This document shows positions 19,060 to 55,517 of a DNA stretch of 64,000 bases, in pieces. The DNA comes from Escherichia coli (GTDB taxonomy: Bacteria; Pseudomonadota; Gammaproteobacteria; Enterobacterales; Enterobacteriaceae): NCBI RefSeq assembly GCF_011045215.1, contig NZ_CP049202.1; one strand, 5' to 3'. Within the stretch, counting starts at the first letter, position 1. Each line of letters starts with the position of its first letter. The notes under the pieces are model-generated. The model made no database searches. It was given only the letters and a program-made list of their open reading frames with translations, and had not been told where the DNA came from. The translations under genes and the position numbers were made by a program.

Positions 19060-21902
19060 AATGGTCCCTTCAGTTGATTCTTTTTCTCATCAATCATTTT
19101 TTTCACAGTCTCTTCTGATGGCTCAGGTATTATCTTTTGACTTTCTCGCTCTTCATTATATTTATTATTCTGAGATAATGCTTCTGTTTTATGGTGATTT
19201 TGTAGTTCAGAATACTGTTTTCTTACAATATTTTCCTCGCCTCGGATGCTGTTCTGAGTATCTCCGATATTACCTCGATATTCTGTGACCATATTATCAA
19301 CCTGATGTTTTACATCATCACGGATATTACTGTCCTGCGTTCTTTGATCAATAATGGCCTGATGCCCCTGATGGTCAGCAATAATATCCTGGCTGCCACC
19401 ACCCGAAGGTACGCTCTCCATTCCTTTACCAATATCGCCACGGGATTCACGCCAGGCATTATCAACACCAGGCTGTATCTGTTCCTGCACAAAAGACCAG
19501 GCCATCGCCCGACGGCGTTCTGCAATCTCCGGCGAACTGGTATTTGTCAGAATAGCTTCGGCATCCTGCGGTGCGTGTTTCATCACATACTGTGCAAACT
19601 GTTGCGACAAATCTTCACTCATCTGCCCACTCATGCTTTCAGTACGGGATGCCATTTCAGCATATTCATGGCTGCGGGTCATATTCGTCGTGTACTGGTC
19701 GTAACTCTGTTTCGCTGAGTTCAGGGCTGCAGACAGCTGGTCCACACGGGAATCGGCATTATTGTCAGTATGGCTGCCGGACTCACTGACTTTGCGACTG
19801 GTAAAGTAATCGCTGGCCTCTTTAAAGTCCTTACTGGCTTTAGCATCGATATCATGTCGAGCATCATGGGTAGCCCTGCTGCCACTACTTGCAGAATGTG
19901 AATCATCATCCGTTCGATCAAGACTTCCCTTAAATCCGCCTCTGACACCAACTCCACCACCAACCCCAAGAATTTTAGGTTTAATCCCCCATTCAGCATG
20001 AGCATCTGCATATCCGCCATACGAGAACTTAGAACCTGTTGATGCCAGTTCCTGAGTCGCCTGCTCATTACTGATATTATGCGCTTTCGCATAGCTTTCC
20101 ACTGCACTGCGCATACGGCTGGCCATCATGGAGTCCTGTGCGCTCATCGTGCTGTCAGCGCCACCGGTGACAGAATCACTGCTCCCCCGGTTAGAACCAA
20201 ACTGACTGAGCGTATTCCAGGCACTGGCAATACTGCTGCTGAACCCATGCAGGGCGCTTTCTGCTCTGTTCGATGCCTCCCGGGCCATTTCCTGTTGTGC
20301 CGCCGCAATCTGACGCGTTGCATTGATACCGACCGGTAAACGGGACATCGCTCCGCTTGCATCCATAACCATATTACCGTCACGGGTCTGTGTGGCGGTT
20401 GCGCCACTGCCGGTCTGGTACATCATCTGACCAAACGACGTGGTGCTGTTGGTGCTCCAGCTGAAGCCGTTCACGTTTTCCGTCTGCATGTTGCCGTAGG
20501 AGTAATTACCGTCAACCACACTGCCTGCTGCACTGGCCGTCGGACTGATAGATGAAGAGGCGAAGTGGCTGTACACACTGGAAAAACCTGCGCCAAGGCC
20601 TTTTACCATCATCCATGACAACGGGGGTATCATGACAGATATATATCCGGCAGTGGACGCCAGGTCGGAGTATTTCAGCTGTATCTGAGAGAGTTCAGAG
20701 AGCACGACCGGTGCACCATTCTGCTTTGCATAGAATGTCATGGCACTGTTCAGAATGGCATACAGCAACGGCCAGGTCTGGAACCACATCAGGGCAAACA
20801 CATAGCCCTTCAGTACAGACAGCGTTAACCTGTTGAAGACCGCCGCCAGTACCAGGAGCGGGAAGATACCAATGGTAATGCCCACCAGAATGGTCTGCAC
20901 CATCGGCAGGTTTCGCATCAGCACATGACCAATGGAGACATGTGCCAGACGCTGTTTCTCCATCGACGAGGTCGTGGCCAGACTGACCAGGCTGGCGGTA
21001 TCACCGTTACGGGCTGCATTACTGGTGATACCCTCTTTCAGGGCATTCATGGTGACGTTCTGGCGCATAATATGGCTGGCAGACTGGCTGGAGCCGTAGA
21101 AATAACTGTAACTGTCACTCACCAGTTGCCTGAATAACAGGTCCGGGTCCGGTCTGCCGCCAAATATCTGCTGGACATAATAATGCCAGGTCTTGCCTCC
21201 GGTATTCGTATCAAAATTCAGCTTATCCTTCAGTCCGACGGATGCGTCCTTACAGGACACAAACGGCTCTGAACTGTGCAGAAAACTGTAATTATTATTC
21301 GGCACCTGACGTAAAGGGCTGGGCTGAGAAAAGATTATGGTGTACGGGTCAGAGGAGGCCATCAGGTCTTCCAGCGTGTATTTGTGATTCAGGTAAATAT
21401 CACCCAGCACGCAGTTCTGGACGTAGTCCTGAAACAGATTGATGATTTCCGGATTCCGGGACAGAAAATCGGTGCTTTTCACAATCAGGTTCGCCCCGAA
21501 CAGCATGCCTGTCTTGCTGTAGGTGGCGCTGTCAGGCTGAGCGAACACCATCTCATAGCCGGCCACCATTGCATGCCCGATACGGGTCGTCAGTGAAAGT
21601 GGCATCGCCAGTCCGACCGGCACATTATCCACCCGATGGACTTTGACCAGGTCACTGTTATCAATAATCTGCACCGACGTGCGGACATTAACCAGCAGGC
21701 TGATAAGCACAAACACGGCCACCCAGCCCAGCAAATCCATCACGTTGTGCCGCTGTACCCATATCACGGCCACCGCGAGAACAGACAATGTGAGCGCAAT
21801 TTTTTCAATGGAATCCCACGTCCTGGTTCCCATAAAGGCGGCAATGGCGTTCAGGTTATTCCGCAACCATTCACCACCGGCAATCACATAAACTTCATTC
21901 AC
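19056..21902 (-). CDS. traG: TraG mating-pair stabilisation / entry-exclusion protein
   Basis: 948 aa with N-terminal polytopic membrane domain; position and size as F TraG. Confidence 0.9.
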   Translation of the reverse strand: MNEVYVIAGGEWLRNNLNAIAAFMGTRTWDSIEKIALTLSVLAVAVIWVQRHNVMDLLGWVAVFVLISLLVNVRTSVQIIDNSDLVKVHRVDNVPVGLAMPLSLTTRIGHAMVAGYEMVFAQPDSATYSKTGMLFGANLIVKSTDFLSRNPEIINLFQDYVQNCVLGDIYLNHKYTLEDLMASSDPYTIIFSQPSPLRQVPNNNYSFLHSSEPFVSCKDASVGLKDKLNFDTNTGGKTWHYYVQQIFGGRPDPDLLFRQLVSDSYSYFYGSSQSASHIMRQNVTMNALKEGITSNAARNGDTASLVSLATTSSMEKQRLAHVSIGHVLMRNLPMVQTILVGITIGIFPLLVLAAVFNRLTLSVLKGYVFALMWFQTWPLLYAILNSAMTFYAKQNGAPVVLSELSQIQLKYSDLASTAGYISVMIPPLSWMMVKGLGAGFSSVYSHFASSSISPTASAAGSVVDGNYSYGNMQTENVNGFSWSTNSTTSFGQMMYQTGSGATATQTRDGNMVMDASGAMSRLPVGINATRQIAAAQQEMAREASNRAESALHGFSSSIASAWNTLSQFGSNRGSSDSVTGGADSTMSAQDSMMASRMRSAVESYAKAHNISNEQATQELASTGSKFSYGGYADAHAEWGIKPKILGVGGGVGVRGGFKGSLDRTDDDSHSASSGSRATHDARHDIDAKASKDFKEASDYFTSRKVSESGSHTDNNADSRVDQLSAALNSAKQSYDQYTTNMTRSHEYAEMASRTESMSGQMSEDLSQQFAQYVMKHAPQDAEAILTNTSSPEIAERRRAMAWSFVQEQIQPGVDNAWRESRGDIGKGMESVPSGGGSQDIIADHQGHQAIIDQRTQDSNIRDDVKHQVDNMVTEYRGNIGDTQNSIRGEENIVRKQYSELQNHHKTEALSQNNKYNEERESQKIIPEPSEETVKKMIDEKKNQLKGPL

Positions 21903-24454: not shown

Positions 24455-24725
24455 GTCCGCCCTCCTGCTGCCCTTCCATCATGGCCTGTTGCCTGGCTTC
24501 CAGTGCCTCACGCTCTTCCCGGCTGACACGTGCAATCCATGCATCCAGCACCTGGTATGCGCCGAACAACACAAGGATGGCCGCAATCAACTCCGCCAGA
24601 AAAAAAGCCATCCAGGGTTTGCTGTAAACAAGACGGGCGACGATATGAAACCAGACACCCAGGGAAAATACCCACATTCCCGTAATATCAAGCCGGGGTA
24701 AAGAGAATCTGCGTTTACCTATCAT
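24441..24725 (-). CDS. traQ: TraQ pilin chaperone
   Basis: 94-aa membrane ORF at the conserved position. Confidence 0.7.
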   Translation of the reverse strand: MIGKRRFSLPRLDITGMWVFSLGVWFHIVARLVYSKPWMAFFLAELIAAILVLFGAYQVLDAWIARVSREEREALEARQQAMMEGQQEGGHVSH

Positions 24726-24805
24726 GTTAAACTCCGGTTATTATTTACATGAGAGTATTTATGTCTGTAATATTCGCGTTTGTGTGATATTAATCAGAGG
24801 TACAA

Positions 24806-25120
24806 ATGGAAAAGCGATCTTTTAAAGAAAAACTGGAAATAATCAGAAACATAATAAGAGAGTCGTTACTGGGAAATGCGGCAATTATTGCGCTGATATA
24901 TGCAGCATCACATTCATTACCGGTCAATGCCTTCCCTGACTATCTTGTAATAAGTTTATTAAGTATCGCAGCAGGCATCGTTGTATTATGGTTATTTTCA
25001 ATTATCTATATTTATTTTTGTGAGCTATTCAGAAGCCACTGGATTGCGGTATGGTTTATCATATGGTCTTCAGTAATCAACCTCATTATTTTGTATGGTT
25101 TTTATGACCGTTTTATATGA
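24806..25120 (+). CDS. artA: ArtA-like ORF, antisense to the tra operon
   Basis: 104-aa hydrophobic ORF on the opposite strand between traQ and trbA, as in F. Confidence 0.45.
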   Translation: MEKRSFKEKLEIIRNIIRESLLGNAAIIALIYAASHSLPVNAFPDYLVISLLSIAAGIVVLWLFSIIYIYFCELFRSHWIAVWFIIWSSVINLIILYGFYDRFI

Positions 25121-25121
25121 C

Positions 25122-25469
25122 TTAGCCTGTCATAAGCCCCCTTATAAAAAACCACATCACTCCGGACCATACCGATGACAACATAATACAGATAAATATT
25201 CTTCTGAACCTGTCGAAGCTCGTAACGTCCGGTAATGCGGCCGCAACTATTGAAACAACCATTGCTGCGCCCTGATTCATAATTGCACCACACAGAAACC
25301 AGAGACTGGCGGTAAGCACATATAAACACGCAATATTAATAACAAGGAAAACCAGTGAGCTCAGGAGAAACATTTTCCTGTCATTACGCTCAGAAAAGAA
25401 ATAACCGGCAATAATGACAAATATTAACAGAACAACACCTGTAAACATTTTCAAATAATCTTCACTCAT
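25122..25469 (-). CDS. trbA: TrbA-like membrane protein
   Basis: 115-aa hydrophobic ORF between traF and artA. Confidence 0.5.
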   Translation of the reverse strand: MSEDYLKMFTGVVLLIFVIIAGYFFSERNDRKMFLLSSLVFLVINIACLYVLTASLWFLCGAIMNQGAAMVVSIVAAALPDVTSFDRFRRIFICIMLSSVWSGVMWFFIRGLMTG

Positions 25470-25484
25470 AAATCAAATCCGCGA

Positions 25485-26258
25485 TTAAAAATTGGGTTTA
25501 AAATCTTCAGAAACGTTCAGGAACTGTTTTGCCAGGTCGTCCTGCGAAATAAAGCCGTATGATAACGGGCGAACACTGCCCTGTTTCGGGTCAACCAGCA
25601 TCATGGCCGGGAAATATTTCACGCCGAGGCGCTGCGCCTGCCCCTGGTCAGTCCGGGAATCCGGCAACAGCGGATTAATCACGCCATCCACGGAAACGGG
25701 AATAACACTCAGACCATACGTATCCCGGAAGCCATTAATGACCTGCGCCAGCTGCCCGTCGATAGGGTCCTGACCCCGGTAAAAAAACATGATGCCGTAA
25801 TGCTCTGCCAGTCTGGCAATAGCCTGTCGCTGCTGCGCCTGGTCTGCCGCCAGCTGGTTCCGGACCGTGCCGTTGTAATGGCTGTACTGCAGGTTATAGT
25901 CCAGTTCGGGATGCGCCAGCATGGCCTTTCTGGCGCTCATGGTGAAAAGCCCGGCCTGCTGAGTCCAGTAATTCTGCAGCCGGAAATATTTCACAAAATT
26001 ATCCACGCCGGGATACAGAATGGCTTCGTACAGCGCCCGCTTTGTTGCCGTCTGCAGCGCGGCCAGTTTCTGCATAATATCCGGCTCCTGACGGGGGGCT
26101 GCAGGTACAGGTTTATTTTCTTTTTCCTTTGGACTTATTTTCTCGTTATACCACTGCCAGCCTGCATCTTTCCCTGACGCCGGAAAAATAAAGCAGCAGA
26201 GTAACAGTGGCAGTAATGCTTTATTCATCTTCATTCCTTTCATCATTTTTTCTTTCAT
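25485..26258 (-). CDS. traF: TraF thioredoxin-like pilus assembly protein
   Basis: 257 aa with signal peptide; synteny and recalled similarity. Confidence 0.85.
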   Translation of the reverse strand: MKEKMMKGMKMNKALLPLLLCCFIFPASGKDAGWQWYNEKISPKEKENKPVPAAPRQEPDIMQKLAALQTATKRALYEAILYPGVDNFVKYFRLQNYWTQQAGLFTMSARKAMLAHPELDYNLQYSHYNGTVRNQLAADQAQQRQAIARLAEHYGIMFFYRGQDPIDGQLAQVINGFRDTYGLSVIPVSVDGVINPLLPDSRTDQGQAQRLGVKYFPAMMLVDPKQGSVRPLSYGFISQDDLAKQFLNVSEDFKPNF

Positions 26259-44126: not shown

Positions 44127-44774
44127 TTATCTTCCCAATATTTCTTTTACTTTAGCATATAAAGGAAGTATCTTTTCCGTTCTAATCATTTCATCCAACC
44201 AGAGATCTCTAGAACTAAATCCATATCGTTTAAATAATTTCATGGTTTTCTTCTTTGATTTAGACACAGTGATGTTCATCTTTGCTGATGAATAATGATG
44301 GCTAAACCCTATCAGATATGGCTCAATGCCTACATATTCATCAGAGGGTACAATTAATTCATTGGAGTATTTAGACACAACAAACGATGACAGATTATCA
44401 TTTGCTACCCAAATAAACCTCCAGATGAAGAAATAGCCGCATGGTGTTATAACACTTTCTATGATCACACTCCATAACGTATTATTAAGTAATATGTCAT
44501 TATTACAATTTACACCATAAATAGAAGAGCATGATTCAATCTCTGCTCTGGATAACTGTAATTTACATTCCAACGTTAAACTATCAAACCATTCATCACA
44601 TGAATTAAAGGACGATCTGATAAGTTTTTCAAAGCAGTTATTTTCCTTAATAAAAGAACCATCCTCGAAGCGGATACATACAGGATATTTTAAAAACGAA
44701 ATAGCCTCTCCAAGACTATGAGGGAAATGCAATTGACTGATGAGTGCTCTTTCTCTACGATCCATCGCACACAT
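44127..44774 (-). CDS. traJ: TraJ transfer activator
   Basis: 216 aa from ATG at 44774 preceded by GGAGG; position between traY and traM. Confidence 0.7.
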
Positions 44775-44857
44775 AGGAACCTCCGTTAAGGATTCTATGG
44801 ACAGTCGATGCAGGGAGTGGCTGCTCCCTGCATCGGCGATTTTCAGTTTCAATTTTT
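44771..44857 (+). ncRNA. finP: FinP antisense RNA (approximate ends)
   Basis: plus-strand stem-loop over the traJ RBS/start, then perfect stem-loop GATGCAGGGAG...CTCCCTGCATC followed by a U-rich tail. Confidence 0.45.
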
Positions 44858-44964
44858 AACGTGGCATTAACCACGTAATCAATATACTAATTATTCTGAT
44901 TATTGTCATCAGTTCGAACCATAAAAAACTCTGATATTTGAACAAAGTCAAAATTTATTTCCCT

Positions 44965-45348: not shown

Positions 45349-45779
45349 AACACACCTTATTTATCTTCCTAAACAAACAATATGTTTTCGTGCTCTCTAT
45401 TCTTCACCTTACGACGAATCGCCATTAGATTCATCATACTAAAATTACGATTCACTATACGAATCAGCAATCATCAAATGACGAATCTAATATAGATTCA
45501 CGCGCCAAGTAAATAGATGTTTTCAAAAAAATAGTCATTACTGAATCATTGACAATTCGTGATAGATTCACTATCGAATCTATCACGAATCCCTGCAATA
45601 TAATTCAAAATTATATAATATAAATACACTTCATTAATTACATGATTTAAAACACAAATCAGCAAAAACTTGTTTTTGCGTGGGGTGTGGTGCTTTTGGT
45701 GGTGAGAACCACCAACCTGTTGAGCCTTTTTGTGGAGTGGGTTAAATTATTTACGGATAAAGTCACCAGAGGTGGAAAA
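45349..45779. promoter_or_regulatory. oriT with nic site between 45688 and 45689 on the plus strand, plus TraM-binding repeats
   Basis: TTTTTGCGTGGGGTGT/GGTGCTTTTGGTGGTGAGAACCACC matches the F oriT nick region; GAATC/GATTC repeat motifs at about 45400-45590. Confidence 0.85.
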
Positions 45780-47811: not shown

Positions 47812-47837
47812 CCTGCTTTCTCCTCTCTCTGGTTTTC

Positions 47838-48380
47838 AGCCCCCATCATCTTTTGAGTTTCGGGAGCCGCGGTTTTGACGTTTTGCGGGGACCTGCCTTT
47901 TGTTCCCTCCGGTATTCACCATCATCTTTTTGAGAACCTTCGCCGCAAGGGGCATCACTGCCACGGCCGGAAACGACTGTCCGGGGGCAGACCGCAAAAG
48001 TTTTTGCCTGCTTCTGGGCAAAAACTTTTGCGGGATGTGCATTTCACCCCTGGACTGGCGGAGACGGTTGTGGCTGTATCAGCCCCCGGCGACAGGGGAT
48101 TAAACAGGTGAATGGCACCGGACAGAACAACGGGCAGGGACCCGCCGCAGCGACGTGAAGCGCGGTTTGCGAAACGGCGTTGCCCCTTACATCCCGGCGG
48201 CCTTTTGCCGGGATGCCGGGAGCGCAGGCCACGGCGCGACAGAGGCGGCGCGACCGGAACGGTCGCTGCAAGCCCGGGGTTTCGCGTCAGGGATGGAAGC
48301 CCGCCAGGGCGGAGACAGCTTCGCTGGCTCCGTTCACGACAGCCCGCCCCGCCAGGGGGACGCCCGGAAAAGGCATAAGC
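47838..48380. repeat. ~540-bp structured repeat, copy 1 (candidate single-strand promoter, Frpo/ssi-like)
   Basis: about 95 percent identical to 53226..53790; contains perfect 15-bp inverted repeat GCAAAAGTTTTTGCC...GGCAAAAACTTTTGC and longer imperfect arms. Confidence 0.6.
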
Positions 48381-48709
48381 AGGAGAACAACAAAACAGAC
48401 AATAATCAGGGCAGCAGTAATCAGAGTCAGAACAGGAGGAAAAAGAGAATAATCAAAGGGAAGGTGATGTGATTTCTGACAGGTCATAAACAGAGAAGGC
48501 GGGGGAAAAGAACGGGCGCCGCAGGCGCACGTTCATCCCCGTTCCCGGAGGGAAACGGCCTTCCTGGCAGTCTGGTTGTTCATGCCCGTACAATGCCAGC
48601 AAGGAGAAAGGGGCCACCGGCGAACCAGCAGCCCCTTTATAAAGGCGCTTCAGTGCAGTCAGACCAGCATCAGCCCTGAAAAGGCGGGCCTGCGCCCGCC
48701 TCCAGGTTG

Positions 48710-48868
48710 CTACTTACCGGATTCGTAAGCCATGAAAGCCGCCACCTCCCTGTATCCGTCTCTGTAACGAATCTCGCACAGCGATTTTCGTGTCAGATAA
48801 GTGAATATCAACAGTGTGAGACACACGATCAACACACACCAGACAAGAGAGCTGCGTGGTAGTTTCAT
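48710..48868 (-). CDS. hok: Hok/FlmA membrane toxin, with overlapping mok-like frame to 49009
   Basis: [52 protein letters not shown], near-identical to Hok. Confidence 0.85.
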
Positions 48869-49142
48869 GGCCTTCTTCTCCTTGCGCAAAGCGCGGTAAG
48901 AGGCTATCCTGATGTTGTCTAAGCATGCAGGGGCCTCGTGGGTTAATGAAAAATTAACTACGGGGCTTTTGTCCTTCTGCCACACAACACGGCAACAAAC
49001 CACCTTCACGTCATGAGGCAGAAAGCCTCAAGCGCCGGGCACATCATAGCCCATATCCCTGCACGCTGACCACACTCACTTTTCCTGAAAATAATCCGCT
49101 CATTCAGGCTGTTTACGGGTAATCTGTGTGATTGTTGCCGCA

Positions 49143-52369: not shown

Positions 52370-53205
<836 letters not shown>

Positions 53206-53225
53206 GATGTGTCTCCTTCTGTTGA

Positions 53226-53790
53226 TGTTTTCAGCCCCCATCATCTTTTGAGTTTCAGGAGCCGCGGTTTGACGTTTTGCGGGGACCTGCCTTTTGTTCC
53301 CTCCGGTATTCACCATCACCTTTTTGAGAACCTTCGCCGCAAGGGGCATCACTGCCACGGCCGGAAACGACTGTCCGGGGGCAGACCGCAAAAGTTTTTG
53401 CCTGCTTCTGGGCAAAAACTTTTGCGGGATGTGCATTTCACCCCTGGACTGGCGGAGACGGTTGTGGCTGTATCAGCCCCCGGCGACAGGGGATTAAACA
53501 GGTGAATGGCACCGGACAGAACAACGGGCAGGGCCCCGCCGCAACGACGGAGAGCGCGTGCGCGAAACGGCGTTGCCCCTTACATCCCGGCGGCCTTTTG
53601 TCGGGATGCCGGGAGCGCAGGCCACGGCGCGACAGAGGCGGCGCGACCGGAACGGTCGCTGCAAGCCAGGGTTTCGCGTCAGGGATAGAAGCCCGCCAGG
53701 GCGGAGACAGCTCCGCTGGCTCCGTTCACGACAGCCCGCCCCGCCCCGCCAGGGGGACGCCCGGAAAAGCCATAAACAGGAGAGGAACGG
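53226..53790. repeat. ~540-bp structured repeat, copy 2 (candidate single-strand promoter upstream of ssb)
   Basis: near-identical to 47838..48380, ends about 20 bp upstream of the ssb RBS. Confidence 0.6.
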
Positions 53791-53817
53791 AAAGAAGAGG
53801 AAGAGGAAAAAGAAAAA

Positions 53818-53841
53818 GAAGAAGAAGAAGAAGAAGAAGAA
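53818..53841. repeat. (GAA)8 trinucleotide microsatellite
   Basis: gaagaagaagaagaagaagaagaa read directly; absent from repeat copy 1. Confidence 0.9.
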
Positions 53842-54018
53842 CAATAACAAGCACGGTAACCACAGAAAAATAACATCAGAAAAAAACATTCCGGACACAT
53901 CACAAACAGGAAGGGTAACGGGCGACGCGTCAGCGTGGCCCGCTTCCCTTCCGGCAGGCGTCAGCCTGCCAGGGGTTTTCGCGCGGGCTGACAGGCGGCC
54001 TCCACCGCCTGCCCTGTA

Positions 54019-54210
54019 TCACCTGTTTCTGCTGCCCTGAAGGATGTACTGACCGCCGAGGAATACAGCCTGCTGATTCGCCACAAAATCGCAGATTTCA
54101 TCAACAATCTGCGCCGTGGTGAGCGGTTTCTGCCCCATTTCACGACGTCGTGCATTAATCACAGCTTTGTAATTACGCAGAATTTCGCGGGTTTCCGTGC
54201 TGATATTCAT
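54019..54210 (-). CDS. hypothetical small protein
   Basis: 63-aa ORF coupled to the stop of the upstream ORF. Confidence 0.4.
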   Translation of the reverse strand: MNISTETREILRNYKAVINARRREMGQKPLTTAQIVDEICDFVANQQAVFLGGQYILQGSRNR

Positions 54211-54629
54211 TACCCGTTCTCCCCGTCCAGCGCCTGACGCATCACCCGCATAATCTCACGTTCTTCCCTGACAAATGCGTCACCGTCGCCCCCGTTCTCG
54301 CTCCCGACAGCATGGAGGCGATAAATTTCACTACCAGCCATCACCATCACTTTTTCCAGCAGCACCGCAGGGACTGTTACAAGACGGTTTACGCGCTTTT
54401 CCTCCATCAGTTCATTGACAATATCGGAAACAACTCTGTCACATGCGCCATATACAAAAGCATCGTCCAGCCGCTGCATGACGGTTTCCAGCTCATCGTC
54501 TGTCAGACTCCAGTCCTGGGCTATGTGACGCACATCCCCACGGGTCAGCACCACGGCAAAAACGCATTCACTGTCCGGCACGTCTGTATCCAGTACATCG
54601 CGAATGATTTCTTTAACAGTACAGTACAT
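54210..54629 (-). CDS. leading-region hypothetical protein, paralogous to 56333..56767
   Basis: 139 aa; shares MY.T..E...., SLTD.E..TV..R..D and VTVPA.LL motifs with the 155-aa ORF. Confidence 0.55.
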   Translation of the reverse strand: MYCTVKEIIRDVLDTDVPDSECVFAVVLTRGDVRHIAQDWSLTDDELETVMQRLDDAFVYGACDRVVSDIVNELMEEKRVNRLVTVPAVLLEKVMVMAGSEIYRLHAVGSENGGDGDAFVREEREIMRVMRQALDGENG

Positions 54630-55101: not shown

Positions 55102-55138
55102 GATGTTTTCCTCCGTTGTTCACATATTCCGCGACACC

Positions 55139-55372
55139 GGGCGGTGCCGTGCCTCCATAAAAGCCGGGCGATAAGGCGGGGATGCAGGGGCGCAAGGGAA
55201 GCCGCAGCCTGACGCACACGGCTGACGGGAGTTGGAGGGTGAGACCGCGAAATCTGAGCGGGTGAACGACCGGAAAATCACGGCAGACGGGAAGAAAGGA
55301 CCGGGTGACCGCAGCGGCAAAGCGTACCCTTGCATCCCTGCCAGCCCGGCTAAGATGGAGGCACGGCACAGC
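55139..55372. promoter_or_regulatory. long imperfect inverted repeat (candidate single-strand promoter)
   Basis: arms GGCGGTGCCGTGCCTCCAT... and ...ATGGAGGCACGGCACAGCC with about 60-nt pairing, directly upstream of 54676..55101. Confidence 0.45.
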
Positions 55373-55517
55373 CCGCACACGACGCTGAGGCCACATAACT
55401 GAAAAACCACAAGGCCATGCCCTGCATGGCCGGGTAAAGCGGAGCCGGCGGCGACTTCCTTTGTGCTCTGTCCGGGGACCGGCAGGAAAAAGGCGGGGAT
55501 TTACCCCGCCAACGTCA

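Follow-up and report, generated by a model that had tools for sequence, protein, structure and literature searches.

The eight-unit GAA repeat that borders the single-stranded-DNA promoter Frpo2 in the leading region of an F-like plasmid is fairly likely to be an ordinary slippage-prone microsatellite of the Frpo2-flanking spacer, with a copy number that has no detectable role. It was read directly from the 64,000-nt stretch of Escherichia coli DNA analyzed here (the window) as eight perfect units, GAAGAAGAAGAAGAAGAAGAAGAA, in agreement with an earlier reading of the same letters without database searches (the sequence-only reading). Its coordinates and those of the surrounding features are collected in Table 1.

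The window comes from an F-like (IncF) plasmid and represents its transfer and leading region. FinP with the traJ 5' untranslated region (positions 44768 to 44876) and sok (48866 to 49037) are its only Rfam matches, and no Rfam family is found at the tract. An exact match to GTGGGGTGTGGTGCTTT, which we take to be the F oriT nick-site motif, is on the plus strand, and the plus strand is therefore the transferred strand; in F biology this strand is also the template of the leading-region genes. The tract is ∼8.1 kb from the nick, in the part of the leading region that remains single-stranded for the longest time after entry. The minus strand carries every leading-region gene (hok, psiA, psiB, a ParB-like gene, DUF905, and ssb) and, upstream of ssb, a 63-aa gene, DUF1380, an antirestriction (KlcA/ArdB-like) gene, and a DNA methylase. 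The order is hok-psiA-psiB-parB-DUF905-ssb-Frpo2-tract-63aa-DUF1380-antirestriction, which places the tract ∼600 nt away from where ssb starts, with Frpo2 on one side and the 63-aa stop codon on the other. The Shine-Dalgarno sequence of the ssb leader is AGAAGGAGA, at 53212 to 53220. Two further features of the region are of note. The closest relative, CP057508.1 (L001), has an IS21-family element, ISEc12, directly past psiB (its positions 1 to 1847), where the window has psiA. Upstream of the KlcA/ArdB-like gene, positions 55102 to 55517 of the window form a long hairpin as single-stranded DNA (z = -4.9), which corresponds by position to the class-2 single-stranded-DNA promoter (ssp2) described in a 2026 preprint.

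Table 1. Features at and around the GAA tract (window coordinates)
Feature	Position	Strand	Remark
F-type oriT nick-site motif	45680..45696	+	exact match to GTGGGGTGTGGTGCTTT
Frpo1 (ssp1a), repeat copy 1	47832..48391	+	
ssb, first gene downstream of Frpo2	52666..53205	-	from the open reading frame list and the annotation of L001
Frpo2 (ssp1b), class-1 single-stranded-DNA promoter, repeat copy 2	53227..53788	+	upstream of ssb
(CCCGC)3.2 pentanucleotide repeat	53735..53750	+	in distal Frpo2
A-rich, T-poor noncoding spacer	53774..53900	+	transferred strand
53-nt pure-purine run	53789..53841	+	decayed GAA/GAG/AAA triplet array holding the GAA run
Perfect (GAA)8 microsatellite	53818..53841	+	(TTC)8 on the gene-sense strand
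GC-rich hairpin region between 63-aa gene and spacer	53901..54018		hairpins in MFE and centroid structures
63-aa hypothetical gene	54019..54210	-	last gene of the upstream klcA/DUF1380 operon

The GAA run stands out sharply from the rest of the window. No other trinucleotide repeat in the 64 kb reaches four units, and the run is far beyond chance, because dinucleotide-preserving shuffles of the window give an expectation of 0.00 matches even when three mismatches are allowed. Period-3 sequence without interruption extends over 53816 to 53841, and Tandem Repeats Finder reports a degenerate AAG array of 16.7 copies with 82% matches at 53792 to 53841. The purine run that holds it is the longest in the window (the runner-up is 16 nt), and the uninterrupted period-3 portion is, by inspection, a perfect 26-nt mirror repeat within the homopurine sequence. 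T is absent across 53774 to 53844, and the 130-nt flank has an A fraction of 0.58 and a T fraction of 0.05. The spacer also holds a 14-nt tandem (CAGAAAAATAACAT, two copies) at 53863 to 53889 and an A7 run at 53880 to 53886. The adjoining GC-rich hairpin region has a paired probability of 0.69 and may be the end of the upstream operon; a consensus scan found no canonical terminator in it.

The window has two copies of a structured repeat, each ∼560 nt and 95.8% identical to one another, and each predicted to fold as single-stranded DNA into a very stable long hairpin (z-scores of -9.3 and, for Frpo2, -10.4). By position, the copy upstream of ygeA/B matches Frpo1 and the one upstream of ssb matches Frpo2; both Frpo1 and Frpo2 are experimentally characterized class-1 single-stranded-DNA promoters (PMC9849209; PMC12672017). 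Promoters of this Frpo/ssi class are described by Masai and Arai 1997, as cited in PMC9849209, and the names ssp1a and ssp1b for Frpo1 and Frpo2 are those of the 2026 preprint. Homology between the two copies stops at 48391 and 53788, the purine run begins at 53789, and the GAA run begins 30 nt past the end of Frpo2, in unique flank. The sequence-only reading had described the repeat as embedded in the second copy and missing from the first; the former does not hold, as the run lies beyond the repeat end, but the latter does, with no GAA run in the distal flank of Frpo1 (48392 to 48470), which is A-rich with period 3. The possibility that the tract is conserved Frpo sequence was rejected because the repeat homology ends at 53788.

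Nor does the tract belong to the promoter fold. In both MFE and centroid structures of the single-stranded DNA, it forms a large unpaired loop, with paired probabilities of 0.01 for (GAA)8, 0.09 for the purine run, and 0.22 for 53842 to 53900, against 0.69 for Frpo2. Membership in the Frpo stem-loop was rejected on the basis of this predicted unpaired state, and the ssb leader and distal Frpo showed no covariation that would extend the stem to the tract.

Comparison with other plasmids separates the promoter from its flank. F and an R100-like plasmid have the same ssb leader and different distal sequences; R100-like plasmids have (CAGTAG)n in place of the GAA tract, with three, six, and seven copies in three loci; and ColIb-P9 (IncI1) has a homologous promoter upstream of ssb, without an adjoining purine tract or repeat. 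The tract is thus missing in ColIb-P9 and exchanged in R100-like plasmids, and it is therefore dispensable for class-1 promoter function. The four IncF flank types examined (GAA, the Frpo1 flank, R100 CAGTAG, and that of L006 and L007) are all A-rich and T-poor on the transferred strand, and the repeat units in all four are multiples of 3. The distal promoter flank in IncF plasmids is a general hotspot for A-rich, T-poor repeats with such units, and the shared composition of the flank sequences suggests some compositional selection on the spacer.

Several of the related loci have further differences in this region. The (CAGTAG)n arrays of the R100-like loci (seven copies in L019 at 20541 to 20680, six in L031, and three in L023) are accompanied by (AAC)3 and lie beside the ssb-proximal Frpo copy, and the Frpo1 flank of L019 and L024 has an 18-nt tandem duplication (CAGTAATCAGAGTCAGAG). 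L019 also has a group II intron coding for an ltrA reverse transcriptase/maturase at 24462 to 26129, between a third Frpo copy and the 63-aa gene, and it occupies the position of the spacer in other plasmids. In six loci (L008, L012, L014, L015, L020, and L021), the tract with its right flank adjoins another Frpo copy; the left flank is only ∼88% identical, and the downstream operon consists of hypothetical, DUF3560, and methyltransferase genes instead of ssb. From the sequences, the altered junction is consistent with recombination between Frpo copies.

The tract is highly variable in length among relatives. The region is present in more than 5,000 plasmid records and in 923 of 5,426 complete E. 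coli genomes (megablast), and the tract was read in 73 loci; their sources are plasmid records, E. coli genomes, 55 metagenome contigs, and a single contig of a metagenome-assembled genome (MAG). Between fixed anchors, 43 distinct sequences of 20 lengths (7 to 97 nt) are found among these 73 loci, with 1 to 16 units in the longest pure GAA run. A run of three units is the most common, in 40 loci, and eight units are present in seven. The window and five plasmids with a 100% identical 2.5-kb right flank have five tract alleles among them, and runs of 6, 7, 8, and 9 units are seen with right flanks identical over this distance. L008 and L014 have seven and six units, respectively, with 3.4 kb of identical flank, and three loci from one stool study (L017, L016, and L018) have 14, 15, and 16 units with identical flanks on both sides. 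Two near-identical records have total lengths of 52,054 and 52,051 bp, a difference of exactly 3 bp. The sequence-only reading had proposed that the triplet repeat is prone to slippage and could vary in length between isolates; the copy-number comparison across related plasmids bears this out, with repeat number far from invariant and whole-unit differences between identical flanks.

Variability depends on the length of the pure run. The (GAA)3 alleles recur unchanged across many sources, and ∼20 pO157-type records keep the same aligned length, whereas runs of at least six units vary between nearest relatives; this rise of instability with run length is qualitative only. Insertions and deletions in the tract among relatives are of 3, 6, 9, 12, and 18 nt and larger multiples of 3, and tandem changes within it involve units of 6 nt (GAAAAA), 9 nt (GAAGAAGAG, in up to seven copies), and 18 nt. 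The relatives also include two deletions inside the tract that run from one short direct repeat to another. Assembly error is a possible source of length differences, but the whole-unit changes between hybrid or long-read assemblies speak against it. The tract is accordingly a microsatellite of the VNTR kind, with perfect units, whole-unit differences, and length-dependent instability.

A scan of genome contigs with the Frpo end motif gave 21 matches, of which five are real Frpo loci and the remainder are mostly chance matches in GC-rich genomes. Four loci (L023, L024, L027, and L031) have an E. coli-type IncF leading region filed under Oscillospiraceae, Oscillibacter, and Collinsella MAGs and a Streptomyces assembly, which probably reflects mis-binning or contamination.

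The GAA run is not the only unstable element here. The (CCCGC)n repeat is a second slippage-prone site, and this one is inside the promoter element: the window (CCCGCCCCGCCCCGCC) is one unit longer than the 46 scorable relatives of the common form, and two other loci have variants shorter by 1 nt (24 loci were unscorable). The A run at 53880 to 53886 also varies, from A6 to A9, in ∼12% of related loci.

These observations fit a simple account. The spacer would hold an old GAA-type microsatellite that has decayed, and (GAA)8 would be the core of it that is expanded at present. This microsatellite would fill the noncoding sequence that separates distal Frpo2, the promoter that drives ssb-psiB, from the final gene of the klcA-type operon. 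Slipped-strand mispairing during DNA synthesis is probably the mechanism, and would lead to gain and loss of whole triplets and of 6-, 9-, and 18-nt multiples, with fast change in long pure runs and stability of the (GAA)3 alleles. The tract itself would encode nothing and would lie outside the promoter hairpin, and its copy number, with no detectable role, is probably neutral. Two observations weigh against this account: the shared A-rich, T-poor composition of the IncF flanks, and the stronger predicted masking of the ssb Shine-Dalgarno sequence by the natural flank than by random ones.

The most serious rival, although we consider it unlikely, is that selection maintains the purine-rich spacer (pyrimidine-rich in its RNA form) as an insulator that separates the klcA operon from the ssb operon. 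Transcripts reading through from the upstream operon would carry a CU tract that pairs with the ssb Shine-Dalgarno sequence and perhaps loads Rho, such that only transcripts started at Frpo2, without the tract, would be translated for ssb-psiB. The GAA run would be one redundant part of this device, and its expansion would add spare anti-Shine-Dalgarno copies. A Rho-utilization site is expected to be ∼60 to 80 nt of untranslated RNA that contains C, has little G, and lacks structure. The RNA of the purine run is composed only of U and C, with U in the majority, and provides 53 nt without G just past a stop codon, but it is only half unpaired in the RNA fold (paired probability of 0.51). The (UUC)n repeat is complementary to AGAAGGAGA with eight Watson-Crick pairs and one G-U pair, at a predicted pairing probability of ∼0.8. 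In partition-function folding of read-through transcripts, all performed in silico, the probability that the Shine-Dalgarno sequence is unpaired is 0.13 with the natural flank, compared to 0.44 ± 0.06 with random flanks, none of 25 being as low; it is 0.45 without the flank and 0.43 when 53789 to 53905 is deleted. Folding likewise predicts distal-flank partners in F, L016, both L019 copies (A and B), and Frpo1.

The same folding exposes the weakness of this proposal. The effect is mostly compositional, as shuffled flanks give 0.21 ± 0.09, with 20% of them at or below the wild-type value, and the Shine-Dalgarno sequence is still masked (0.06) when the purine run alone is deleted. GAA copy number is irrelevant, with values of 0.10 to 0.18 for 0 to 16 units, and the effect at Frpo1 is weak (0.17 versus 0.29 ± 0.08). 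The failure to find covariation between leader and distal end, and the ColIb-P9 arrangement, also argue against it. If insulation is real, flank composition would decide it and copy number would not. As a separate observation, GUGAUGUGUCC (53891 to 53903, gene-sense strand) is complementary to the ssb leader/start region GACACAUCAU (53206 to 53216), and it is the top predicted leader partner in plasmid F.

A second rival, which we regard as highly improbable, is triplex (H-DNA) formation by the homopurine mirror repeat, or trapping there of the polymerase that copies the transferred strand, just before it arrives at Frpo2. The length of the purine run and its perfect 26-nt mirror symmetry are the kind of sequence this would need, and the tract is directly upstream of Frpo2 on the path of complementary-strand synthesis. 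Another single-stranded-DNA promoter, ssp2, is a proven roadblock to complementary-strand synthesis in the accessible portion of the 2026 preprint, but that text maps the roadblock to the ssp2 stem and reports none at Frpo2. Moreover, most alleles have only (GAA)3, and the flanks of R100-like, L006/L007-type, and ColIb-P9 plasmids are not homopurine. Polymerase stalling at Frpo2 as the driver of slippage is speculation.

That the tract is coding, either for a lysine- and arginine-rich protein on the plus strand or for a small leucine-rich membrane peptide on the minus strand, has very little to recommend it, although triplet insertions and deletions would then be in-frame length changes. Tract lengths are congruent modulo 3 in all 73 loci, every flank type has one phase that is open on both strands, and a RefSeq coding sequence, WP_000388237.1, spans the tract in F (NC_002483.1; L013, 2986 to 3342). 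However, slippage of a triplet unit alone explains the modulo-3 pattern, and a tract of purines only is free of stop codons in all six frames. The adjacent (CCCGC)n repeat and A run vary by 5 nt and 1 nt, shifting both open reading frames, and this free variation by other than multiples of 3 in neighboring repeats means that there is no reading-frame constraint across the region. The ATG used by RefSeq in F is ATA in the window, and the plus-strand frame exists in 55 versions with differing N termini and start codons. No Shine-Dalgarno sequence precedes the GTG of the minus-strand frame (VVTV..LLLLLLLL..MAFPGVPLAGR..), and a frameshift removes the C terminus of this frame in 5 of the 43 alleles. 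Substitutions are few and, by inspection, mostly nonsynonymous on both strands, and Pfam and NCBIfam give no matches to the tract open reading frames. The poly-K (53558 to 54040, plus strand) and poly-F (53494 to 53898, minus strand) frames that the sequence-only reading dismissed as artifacts do exist, together with poly-R, poly-S, and poly-L frames, and they are rightly so described, having no conserved start, breaks at the 5-nt and 1-nt indels, and no protein-family match. Coding on either strand was rejected because there is no conserved start or Shine-Dalgarno sequence, the neighboring repeats introduce frameshifts, and no protein family is matched. WP_000388237.1 in F is probably spurious, as are the other lysine-rich "hypothetical proteins" annotated across the tract in public records.

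Least credible of all is a contingency (phase-variation) locus, with a neighboring gene turned on or off by repeat number. Copy number is indeed hypervariable among near-identical plasmids, but changes of 3 nt leave a reading frame in phase, and no validated open reading frame includes the tract. No sigma-70-like promoter is found in 53100 to 54300, a promoter and terminator scan gave no promoter-like or terminator-like site at or beside the tract, and the tract is outside the hairpin promoter, at ∼600 nt from the start of ssb.

Even an ordinary microsatellite in the Frpo2-flanking spacer may be of practical use. The tract tells apart F-like plasmids that are identical over kilobases, and it is a possible cheap, high-resolution marker of plasmid transmission; total record length can differ by exactly this GAA repeat. 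The instability of the distal flank is relevant to engineering or modeling Frpo2. Mechanistic importance would follow only if the spacer were an insulator for the ssb-psiB operon. A literature search of incomplete coverage found no published description of this locus as a leading-region polypurine tract or VNTR.

The tract shares some features with each of four known systems. Like the phase-variable loci of Haemophilus and Neisseria, it is a hypermutable repeat, but it has a 3-nt unit, lies outside any open reading frame and promoter hexamers, and has no identified switchable gene. GAA·TTC repeats are known from Friedreich ataxia and from polymerase self-arrest on single-stranded purine templates; the tract has the same unit as these and other H-DNA-forming repeats, together with a 53-nt homopurine run and mirror symmetry, but it is far shorter than pathogenic GAA·TTC tracts, and most natural alleles have three pure units. 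It directly adjoins Frpo2, on the same strand, and is thus associated with the Frpo/ssi class-1 promoters, but unlike them, it is outside the conserved repeat and is predicted to be unpaired; neither Frpo1 nor ColIb-P9 has it, and R100-like plasmids have (CAGTAG)n instead. It also resembles the bacterial simple sequence repeats and VNTRs used in MLVA, with a perfect short unit, whole-unit changes, and instability that grows with length, although unlike MLVA VNTRs, it is plasmid-borne, located in an F-like leading region, and always has its purine strand on the transferred strand.
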